Source: a virus (taxonomy: Duplodnaviria; Caudoviricetes). From it: a stretch of 64,000 nt of DNA. A program made the translations under genes and the position numbers. The stretch is from positions 128,001 through 192,000 of IMG/VR virus record IMGVR_UViG_2061766007_000342; one strand, 5' to 3'. Under the pieces are notes generated by a model. It did not search any database and had not been told where the DNA came from. It was given only the letters and a program-made list of their open reading frames with translations. Positions 30,271 through 33,903 of this stretch are shown here, one piece after another (position 1 is the first letter of the stretch; each line of letters opens with the position of its first letter).

Positions 30271-31131
30271 TTAATTATTTACTAAATATGCATCCAAGTA
30301 ACTTGGGAGTGCATAACATTCCGAAACGGAATTACAGAAGACATCGATGCGTCCAGATTTGCATCCACAATCTTCCAATGTATAAGTCCCCAATCCGTCG
30401 ATACGGATCTGGTCTCCATACTTCAGTCCAAGATTATTCATCTGGGACTTGTTCATTGCAATGGTACGGCCAGATTGAGGCCATGTGCCAGATGCTGTCT
30501 TACAACCAGTTGCAACATAACCAGTGATACGGAAATTACCAAGATATGTTTCATCATCATTTACCGTTGTCGTTGTTGTTTCCGTCGTAGTTGTTTCCGG
30601 CTCTGTCGTTGTTGTGGTTGTTGTCGTGGTTGTTGTCGTTTCCGTCGTGGTTGTAGTTTCAGTTGTTGTTGTAGTTGTTGTTTCGGTTGATGTAATCACA
30701 ACTGTTTCTGCAATAATCGGTTCATCAACAACCAAAGCTTCTGCTTGCTGAATAATCGGATGATTCTCAACAAGCTGTACAACCGGCTGTGTGGTACTTT
30801 CGGCGATAACGATGTATGTTTCGCCATTGGATACAATTGTCTCAATTTCACGAGACGTTGTCACACCAGTTGTCGTTGTGATATCAGTCGTTGAAGTATT
30901 ATCCGTTGTCATAGATGTAACATCGGTTGATGTTGACATCACTGTGGTGGTTGATACATTTGCTGTATCATCAGTGATAACAACAAGGTTTTCTTCAACT
31001 TCTGCTTCCACTGCAGTACGGTTCAGTCTTGACACAATACCAACCGCAATTGCAATGATGGCAACAATCGCAATTGTTGCAATGACATAAATCCTAACGT
31101 GGTTTTTCTCTTCATTAAACATTTTACTCAA
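30271..31131 (-). CDS. Membrane-anchored 3D-domain (MltA-like) cell-wall protein with Thr-rich stalk
   Basis: N-terminal TM helix, poly-Thr linker, ITGY...TASG...TIA...GTYTLEDCG...RIDVF. Confidence 0.85.
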   Translation of the reverse strand: MSKMFNEEKNHVRIYVIATIAIVAIIAIAVGIVSRLNRTAVEAEVEENLVVITDDTANVSTTTVMSTSTDVTSMTTDNTSTTDITTTTGVTTSREIETIVSNGETYIVIAESTTQPVVQLVENHPIIQQAEALVVDEPIIAETVVITSTETTTTTTTETTTTTETTTTTTTTTTTTEPETTTTETTTTTVNDDETYLGNFRITGYVATGCKTASGTWPQSGRTIAMNKSQMNNLGLKYGDQIRIDGLGTYTLEDCGCKSGRIDVFCNSVSECYALPSYLDAYLVNN

Positions 31132-32362: not shown

Positions 32363-33903
32363 TTATTTGGAATCGGTTTCATCTGGTTCCCATTGTAAGT
32401 ATTTTGTTTCAATTGCCATTGATGATATTGTTTTAGATCTGGATTTTATCCAAATCTTATCCATTCTAACTGAAGAGTCATAAATATCATAGTAATAACA
32501 ACGTTTACCACAATATCTCAATCTCCACGTAGTTTGTTTAGCAGTCAAAGAGCTAACATATGGCGAACATGATATAATCGCAGTGATACCTGGAATATCG
32601 GTACCAGTACCACATGATCCAATTGTTGTAACAATGACATCTGCATGTTTATTTGCTTCATTCTCGGATTTGGAATTCTTTGAATTGATCGTTTGGATGT
32701 TCAAATCATAGGGGAATGATTCATCATAATTCAAATGTTTATGTAAATAATATGAAGTGTCAATACATAAATCGATCAATGGCATGAATATTAACACTTT
32801 AGCAGATGGGTCACGTTCATAAATCATTTTAACAATATCGGTTACACATTTAATGTGTGTTTGTTTTTTGTCATATTGAATGACCCATTTTCCATAAGAA
32901 GCAGGTGACATTTTACCTCGATAGCCTTCAACTCTGAATTTCACAATTTTCGGGTTGGCATTTGTATTGATTTCAACGACATTATATTCAACCCATTTCT
33001 TAGGTTTGCTTTCTGATAATAGTGATGATGGTTTATAAAACAATGCATTTGAAAATACATGACGAAATATAATATTTTCATTCTTTGATGATCGACCGTC
33101 GGTTGCTGTTAAATATAAATTTCGTTGAATATTAAATACGAAATCCATCATTAATGTATCTCGAAACTCTAAATGTGCTTCATCAATAATTTTTAATCCA
33201 ATACCAAGTACACGTGGAATATTAGCCATCTTATCTAAATCACGAACACGTTTTAATCCTGCTCGGAATGTTGCATGTGTCATCAAATAGATATCATAAT
33301 TCGGATCATGACCATTTGCAATCGCTTCCAATTCTTCAGATGTTTCGATCTCGTGAACATCTTCTGACGTGAGACCTTGCAACTTATACAATGAATCTCT
33401 CCATTGTGTGCGTAATGTATCTCGATGCATAATGATTAATGTTTTCTGGTTATACAAGCAAGCAGCTCTTCCGGAACAATACGTTTTGCTTGTTAACCGA
33501 AACCACCAGTTTTCACTAAAAATATCTGTTGTCTGTCATTGTTTGAAGAATGCTCATTTAATCCGGCAATAAAATTGATAACATCAGTCTGTTCAATATT
33601 ACGCGGAGGAATGATTTCTTCATGTTCATATTTCATTGATCTGGAATTGATTGCTTGTATAAAATTAACGTGAACGTTATTTAATAATCTACGAATATAA
33701 TCCAGATTAACCCCACGATGAATATACAATAAATTGTTTGCTTCATCCAATAAATATCCTAATGAAATAATATCATCTTGAAACTCATCTTCAAATTCCA
33801 GTCTGGAAATTAGTTGAGATAACGGTTCAATAGCTTCTTTACCAGGATAAACGGTATATGACGTTGGACGAACACACAGGGTGAATTCCGTTGTGGTTTT
33901 CAT
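32363..33903 (-). CDS. SF2 (UvsW-like) helicase interrupted by 8 nt in Walker A; appears as two ORFs, 33493..33903 and 32363..33487
   Basis: Q-motif PRNIEQ and GGFG* in the first ORF; KTYC, DEAH, TAT, GTGTDIPG and QTTWRLR in the second frame. Confidence 0.85.

Follow-up and report, generated by a model that had tools for sequence, protein, structure and literature searches.

Short stop-first inserts in the Walker A motif of a phage DNA helicase family as candidate sites of a natural ribosomal hop

To our knowledge, very few systems make use of translational bypassing, namely gene 60 of phage T4 with its homologues and the byps of yeast mitochondria. The bypass in T4 gene 60 was reportedly described by Huang et al. 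in 1988. The gene 60 gap protects against the homing endonuclease MobA, as reported in a preprint in which helicases are not mentioned (10.1101/2022.08.31.505936). Synthetic stop-hops and short hops of +5, +6 and +9 were studied in E. coli by Weiss, Gesteland and Atkins (1987), and the byps of Magnusiomyces capitatus mitochondria, with 27-55 nt at 81 sites across the genome, were described by Lang et al. (2014); both are given here as they appear in a 2016 recoding review (PMC5009743). According to this review, natural short-distance counterparts had long been presumed, and a natural in-frame stop-hop was unknown (PMC5009743).

In the window, i.e., the whole stretch of 64,000 nucleotides of viral DNA under study, the gene for a 510-aa SF2 helicase on the minus strand is interrupted within its Walker A motif (P-loop). 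The minus strand from 33515 to 33470 reads AAA ACT GGT GGT TTC GGT TAA CAA GCA AAA CGT ATT, in which GGT, the insert TAACAAGC and AAA follow one another and the G is thereby separated from the K of GGFGKT. The features of the locus are the following.

33903..33493, minus strand: ORF1 including its stop (coding part 33496..33903), with an ATG start and a 136-aa product ending in FLVKTGGFG before the stop
33496..33498, minus strand: proposed take-off codon GGT, the last Gly of GGFG
33493-33495, minus strand: TAA stop closing ORF1, directly after GGT
33488..33495, minus strand: 8-nt insert TAACAAGC, presumed untranslated, whose first three bases are TAA, the A-site stop
33488..33490, minus strand: proposed landing codon AGC, near-cognate for a GGY-reading Gly tRNA, with a match at positions 2-3
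33485..33487, minus strand: resume codon AAA, the Walker A lysine
32363..33487, minus strand: ORF2, 374 codons and a stop, covering KTYCSG and all that follows of the helicase core

The frame of ORF2 is -1 relative to that of ORF1; it is open from about 33540 to 32363 and reads ..WFRLTSKTYCSGRAAC.. there. ORF1 corresponds by homology to the first 136 residues of intact helicases of 505-513 aa, in which the sequence FLVKTGGFGK[ST]YCSG is found (P0002, 84% identical; P0003, 80%). In the intact orthologs the two halves of the query abut with 0 nt between them; thus, removal of exactly 33488..33495 restores colinearity, and the deletion yields GGFGKTYCSG. An earlier, sequence-only reading of this DNA had claimed that these 8 nt split the Walker A motif, that their removal gives GGFGKTYC and a single SF2 helicase of about 510 aa, and that there are no other lesions; it was correct in every detail. 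A second lesion was not found in the window gene, both ORF1 (136-138 open codons) and ORF2 (374 aa) being open throughout.

The assignment as a helicase is based on several matches. ORF2 scores 33.2 bits against Pfam ResIII (cutoff 22.5), stays below the cutoffs of Pfam DEAD and Helicase_C, and matches the DNA helicase family PHROG 16 with E=9e-23. It carries DEAH (motif II), TATDGR and QxxGRxRY-type motifs, whose columns are invariant across the family. The motifs of SF2 members (I, II, III and VI) are all present, albeit motif I is whole only once the 8 nt are skipped. In a protein search, the closest helicases from cultured phages were those of the Bacillus phages AR9 and PBS1, with about 25% identity. 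A nucleotide search against cultured phages gave no match to the helicase locus; neither the nucleotide nor the protein searches revealed a cultured phage model carrying the hop site, and no solved structure related in sequence to the helicase was found. Next to the window helicase lie a gene for a topoisomerase A-type subunit and small ORFs; an HNH gene is not among them. Also in the window, at 30271-31131 on the minus strand, a 286-aa protein is encoded that has a long poly-Thr/Glu/Val linker and a C-terminal region resembling a 3D/RlpA-like cell-wall hydrolase domain; the ortholog of this gene in L003 matches Pfam Hydrolase_2.

DNA of relatives was taken from ENA contigs, 46 IMG/VR loci and 80 metagenome loci, and the junctions were extracted by tblastn using both halves of the window protein, which gave about 62 distinct orthologous loci with 46-100% identity. 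The site occurs in three states, namely intact, with an intein between K and T, or with a short insert. The ortholog alignment proposed with the sequence-only reading was meant to distinguish empty sites, introns or inteins, and similar short inserts; empty sites, inteins and short inserts are all seen at this site, and group I introns are seen in the same motif of a paralog. A short insert is present at the same spot in 24 of the about 62 distinct loci, from independent metagenomes; the lesion of the window is thus not an isolated one. Chance does not account for it, as a stop-first insert is found at this one codon boundary in all 24 of these distinct related loci. There are 13 sequence types, 1, 5, 6, 8, 9, 10 or 11 nt in length, and all three frames are present. 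In the following lines, the take-off codon, the interior of the insert and the landing codon are separated by hyphens.

GGT-TAACA-AGC, 8 nt: window
GGT-TAACAA-AGC, 9 nt, in frame, the window insert plus one A: L001, L052, L132
GGT-TG-AGC: L003, L103, L108
GGT-TAACT-GGC: L005
GGT-TAAAT-GGC: L008
GGT-TAAAT-GAC: L009
GGT-TGAAT-GGC: L089
GGT-TA-GGT: L012, L062, L016, L034, L106
GGT-TGAATAA-GGT: L028, L084, L088
GGT-TAA-CGC, in frame: L076, L077
GGG-T, then AAR, a +1 site: L013, L071, L081
TTC-TAGCAA-GTC, then GGG AAA, one codon upstream: L006
TTC-TAGGTAGC-ATC, then GGA AAG, one codon upstream: L018

Identical types recur in independent samples and assemblies (L132, L001/L002 and L052; L012, L014, L061 and L069; L028, L084 and L088), and therefore they are not assembly errors. 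The probability of an assembly or sequencing artefact in the window itself is practically negligible: the window and its closest relative differ by one A in the insert (8 versus 9 nt), and the 8-nt length comes from one assembly, but the stop-containing insert as such is found in the first of these groups of independent assemblies. What might be wrong is at most the length, 8 versus 9 nt, and recoding is required with either.

The inserts follow a common grammar. A stop codon (TAA, TAG or TGA) stands directly after the take-off codon in 13 of the 13 types; its identity varies between types, its presence is constant. The take-off codon is GGT, or GGG in the 1-nt forms, or TTC in the inserts located one codon upstream. 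The last codon of the insert is either the same as the take-off codon, wobble base aside (GGT, GGC), or matches it at positions 2-3, which applies to AGC and CGC for Gly take-off and to GTC and ATC for Phe take-off; the sole exception is GAC in L009, and here L008, a close relative, has GGC. The forms with Phe take-off are a positionally independent case of the same grammar. In the window, the landing codon AGC is a two-of-three match, and AGC also ends the 5-nt and 9-nt inserts of relatives. That a Gly take-off codon is followed by a stop and that GGT would land on the near-cognate AGC had already been noticed in the window, and this anatomy recurs in the relatives. Of 23 insert alleles, 20 have GGT as the Gly take-off codon and the three +1 forms have GGG; GGT stands at this position in 7 of 22 intact alleles (Fisher p=2e-4, from counts that ignore phylogeny). 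AAA is the resume codon in 19 of 23 insert versus 7 of 22 intact alleles, again in counts ignoring phylogeny. Among the intact alleles of this clade, GGC, GGA, GGT and GGG are all in use. As a separate observation, the intact alleles form two groups, "GGT AAA" and "GGC/GGA AAG" (L011, L031, L070, L073, L092 and L117 versus the other intact alleles); the former has the same codons as the intein- and insert-bearing alleles, and the latter may be synonymous escape variants of a homing site.

In a tree built by maximum likelihood from 55 joined proteins (quick search under LG+G4), all inserts fall inside one clade of 37 rows, where they are interleaved with intact and intein alleles, and at least 19 state changes are required on this 55-protein tree. 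Near-identical genes differ in state (L006 with 9 nt, L007 intact, L005 with 8 nt, L054 intact). In the tree, the window sequence is sister to L004, which is intact; its next relatives have the 9-nt insert. Internal deletion in longer inserts, e.g., GG[TTAG]GTAAA, can produce the 1-nt forms, and these nest within or beside such lineages. From these interleaved, switching states and the derivable 1-nt forms it follows that the site is an indel hot spot, at which only decodable variants persist. The switching in L005, L006, L007 and L054 also fits a mutational hot spot with short-lived alleles.

One rival explanation is that the window allele is non-functional, i.e., a recent inactivating scar left, for instance, by an endonuclease cut and sloppy repair, in a helicase that is dispensable or complemented by a paralog. 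This is unlikely. The genome does have a paralogous helicase, the site is a proven target of mobile elements, near-identical genes do switch state, and the landing codon of L009 is mutated to GAC; however, a second lesion was found in none of the 24 insert-bearing loci, all of which have at least 133 open codons in ORF1 and at least 369 aa in ORF2, and the short-form proteins retain all invariant helicase columns. Pairwise dN/dS values (Nei-Gojobori) among pairs with a common insert are 0.01-0.30 over both halves, and the stop-first, matching-end grammar holds across types.

L076/L077: dN/dS 0.11 in the N-terminal domain and 0.07 in the helicase core, with dS 0.9-1.5
L012/L062: dN/dS 0.086 in the N-terminal domain and 0.085 in the helicase core
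L008/L009: dN/dS 0.015 in the N-terminal domain and 0.079 in the helicase core
window/L001: dN/dS 0.30 in the N-terminal domain and 0.18 in the helicase core, above the values of the other pairs

Both halves are under purifying selection, which is the outcome of the dN/dS comparison suggested along with the sequence-only reading; neither the relaxed selection nor the further lesions of a pseudogene were found. The closest relative, L132, is from another sample and has 95.7% DNA identity to the window and the 9-nt in-frame insert. The codons of the two differ by 78 synonymous and 10 non-synonymous changes, of which 26 and 7, respectively, are in ORF1, and 52 and 3 in ORF2, an excess that also argues against a non-functional allele. 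Between the landing site and the first ORF2 start codon, the changes are all synonymous in the ORF2 frame; thus, ribosomes must enter this frame at or before the lysine codon. The inserts, too, are identical in pairs near synonymous saturation (L076/L077, L012/L062 and L012/L016), from which it follows that the insert itself is under constraint; this, too, argues against a non-functional allele. Recent gene conversion as the source of identical inserts was considered for two pairs and rejected, since L012 and L016 have an identity of only 60% in the 300 nt that precede their common TAGGT.

The requirement to enter the ORF2 frame this early bears also on the possibility that two products are made by design, namely the 136-aa protein and an independently initiated ORF2 protein, as a split helicase or an ATPase-dead form. 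Gene callers indeed annotate ORF2 proteins of 350-375 aa, and in L003 a TTG is located directly before SKT. In the window, however, the first ATG, GTG or TTG after the ORF1 stop is the TTG of MYNQKT, 11 codons past the Walker lysine, the stretch before this start changes only synonymously in the ORF2 frame, and most insert types offer no start codon before the lysine. We know of no precedent for a P-loop that is split between two chains, and production of two proteins by design is considered very unlikely. Among the 120 best database homologues, about one quarter have a length of only 340-375 aa, and some reach about 650 aa. The short annotated homologues, which start at MHRD, MYNQ, MSKT or MCLW, are a systematic annotation artefact of the interrupted P-loop.

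The two halves would probably be joined into one 510-aa SF2 DNA helicase by a short, frame-independent ribosomal hop. What is shown is the layout of the site, that it recurs among relatives, and that both halves and the insert are under selection; the hop as well as its efficiency and the tRNA involved are inferred. When the ribosome arrives at GGT, peptidyl-tRNA(Gly) would occupy the P site and TAA the A site. Slow termination would leave time for the peptidyl-tRNA to unpair; the mRNA would slide by 8 nt, and the anticodon would re-pair with AGC by two of three pairs, at codon positions 2-3. Decoding would restart at AAA ACG, giving GGFG-KT, and from those ribosomes that terminate, the N-terminal fragment of 136 aa would be set free. 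A very short programmed hop was the first option named in the sequence-only reading, and it is the sole model that gives GFGKT in the window and in all 13 types when take-off is connected with landing codon; it also fits the purifying selection. Since all three frames occur, only frame-independent skipping gives GFGKT everywhere.

Translation of the insert, by a -1 shift at the stop or, in the in-frame versions, by readthrough, would lead to a working P-loop that is longer by 2-3 residues. Types ending in GGC or GGT keep a Gly before the lysine under -1 reading, even as GxxxxGKT. This manner of reading fails, however, in six types: in five of them (those of the window, L001, L003, L009 and L076) the residue before the lysine is S, D or R instead of Gly, the read-in residues being LTS-K in the window and xQS-K, LS-K, LND-K and xR-K in the others, and in the remaining one, the 10-nt type, a second stop is met when reading through after a +1 shift. 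The window would read LTS where its 95.7%-identical relative reads stop-Q-S. A slippery heptamer was not found around the window junction. The earlier statement that a -1 shift would give GFG-LTS-KT and break the P-loop, with S before the lysine, thus holds for the window, and translation of the insert is quite unlikely. Nor does the junction have a homopolymer of sufficient length for transcriptional slippage.

Removal of the insert from the RNA before translation, by a micro-intron or by editing, is suggested by the group I introns that related phages carry at this motif of the paralog, but inserts of 1-11 nt cannot fold into a ribozyme, and the match between take-off and landing codon is a ribosomal rather than a splicing signature. 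We know of no machinery for the RNA-level removal of such inserts, and this route appears highly improbable.

For the ribosomal hop, possible aids were looked for. Termination is known to be slow at a nascent chain with C-terminal Gly and Pro, and by analogy the conserved PGFG or GGFG may contribute to slow termination at the insert. The efficiency of the hop may be low, given the merely near-cognate landing on AGC in the window. The tRNA search gave none in the window and nine in the genome, among which there are neither Gly nor suppressor tRNAs; a special phage-encoded tRNA is thereby ruled out as explanation. Local folds of 40 alleles revealed no shared hairpin that would represent a conserved stimulatory RNA structure; the z-scores are mostly insignificant, and notable folding is limited to the window and a few other alleles. 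The hairpin of the window (33448..33498, minus strand) is formed by 33486-33498, i.e., the take-off codon, the insert and AA, which pairs with TTGCTTGTATAACC (33448-33461), a stretch of 14 nt about 35 nt downstream. It has an MFE of -21.6 kcal/mol with a z of -1.96 and is not conserved among the relatives. As such, the 13 nt of take-off codon, insert and AA are a near-perfect reverse complement of TTGCTTGTATAACC, which has one extra base; this complementarity may have come about if the insert arose by snap-back or template switching, or it may be a structure specific to the window. A crude scan of the 258-kb genome for other abutting frames on the same strand gave only shadow frames or ordinary gene overlaps as further candidates.

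The P-loop of these helicases is also visited by mobile elements. Among the orthologs, an intein of 231-325 aa is located between K and T in seven loci, 3 nt from the position of the window's insert, and P0018-type proteins have a mini-intein of about 137 aa. A paralogous SF2 helicase of the same genome (L051:1420-3813, minus strand, at about 206.2-208.6 kb, about 45 kb beyond the window end) has 797 aa and 27% identity to the split helicase. It carries an intein of 344 aa in its Walker A motif, which begins with E after GVGK, ends with THN before T, and includes a LAGLIDADG domain (Pfam PF14528, E=6e-10). This intein is homologous to those in the orthologs of the split gene (30-39% identity); its first residue is E, that of the related inteins in the orthologs is A or M, and an N-terminal Cys or Ser nucleophile is absent. 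Given its conserved Trp and Cys blocks, the paralog intein resembles those of class 3. In the genomes of L006 and L018, the paralog contains ORF-less group I introns (L133:434-731 and L134:399-714; RF00028, 70 and 67 bits) that interrupt its Walker A motif around the Gly codon before the lysine; in these two genomes, the ortholog's own insert is the one located one codon upstream. If, as is canonical, the exon ends in U and the intron in G, the paralog exons do not join to GVGKT, and the splice junctions may be unusual or shifted. The earlier remark that P-loops are favoured by introns and inteins is matched here by inteins at the motif of ortholog and paralog and by group I introns in the paralog.

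The window insert itself was rejected as a group I intron or an intein, having 8 nt and neither ribozyme fold nor Hint domain. A comparison of the inserts with intron ends, which bears on the scar of a lost intron named as an option in the sequence-only reading, showed no clear derivation; the window insert and the paralog introns both end in AAGC and do not match further. The presence of inteins, introns and inserts at one motif hints at a role of the inserts in shielding the P-loop DNA from homing endonucleases. They would do so by breaking up the DNA target of the intein and intron endonucleases that invade the same motif, a reading drawn by analogy with the gene 60 gap and MobA that has a somewhat less than even chance of being correct. 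In the first six genomes, the ortholog insert and the paralog mobile element were concordant in 6/6 cases; over 13 genomes the counts are 5/1 versus 3/4, and the association is not significant. The combined scenario, in which uncultured AR9/PBS1-like jumbo phages keep natural, evolving stop-hops of 1-11 nt that destroy the target of a homing endonuclease and over which ordinary ribosomes would still join the halves, is put forward only tentatively and may well turn out otherwise.

The helicase family constitutes a natural allelic series of 13 gap types of 1-11 nt, with cognate and near-cognate landings, all three stop codons and two take-off tRNAs in one conserved context. Such a series is almost a finished mutagenesis table from which the rules for take-off and landing could be read. 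The meeting of inteins, group I introns and hop inserts in a single motif, in turn, provides a test bed for the question whether bypass elements arise as protection from homing endonucleases. If the combined scenario is true, short-range bypassing would be an overlooked layer of phage gene expression and of the conflict with selfish elements. A published description of this helicase hop system was not found in literature searches.

The closest comparison is with T4 gene 60 and its MobA cassette. A Gly take-off codon followed immediately by a stop is common to both (PMC5009743). Re-pairing of the peptidyl-tRNA downstream, by which one protein is obtained from two ORFs, is likewise proposed for the helicase, here on sequence evidence, and in both cases a phage gene of DNA metabolism is concerned, with homing-endonuclease traffic at the site. 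In contrast to the gap of 50 nt in gene 60 (20 nt in one clade), the gap is 8 nt in the window and 1-11 nt in its relatives; the helicase has no take-off stem-loop, 5' stem-loop or recognisable nascent-peptide signal, and its landing codon is often merely near-cognate. The host gene encodes a helicase P-loop and not the large subunit of topoisomerase II, and neither MobA nor homology to the cassette is present. Membership in the gene 60/MobA cassette was therefore rejected, on the grounds of the 8-nt gap, the lack of shared structure, the helicase host gene and the lack of an HNH neighbour.

Among the other systems, the Streptomyces phage Hau3-type terminase candidate bypass also concerns a phage gene with a short coding gap that was recognised by comparison, but it involves the rare Streptomyces UUA codon and a different gene, and it lacks such a variety of lengths (PMC5009743; PMC10732093). 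With prfB-type +1 frameshifting, the 1-nt relatives (GGG T AAR) share a formal +1 shift, in which Gly occupies the P site and a stop the A site; unlike prfB, the window needs 8 nt to be skipped, and a Shine-Dalgarno-like stimulator was not seen. The byps, as the review describes them, resemble the helicase inserts in that many different inserts exist, some with two-of-three matches of take-off and landing, in that the A-site codon is non-decodable, and in that they are tolerated rather than elaborately programmed; they differ in relying on relaxed mitochondrial decoding, the helicase case being one site in one gene family read by bacterial ribosomes (PMC5009743). The synthetic stop-hops, as described in the same review, share the short gap, the frame-independent resumption and the matched codons around the stop, but they are artificial and of low efficiency, whereas the helicase inserts are natural and conserved (PMC5009743). 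Three helicase types (TAA-CGC, TAA-CAA-AGC and TAG-CAA-GTC) are in frame, the class of stop-hop for which the review knew of no natural case. Summarizing these likenesses and differences, the hop proposed for the window would most likely be a short natural counterpart of the T4 gene 60 bypass.
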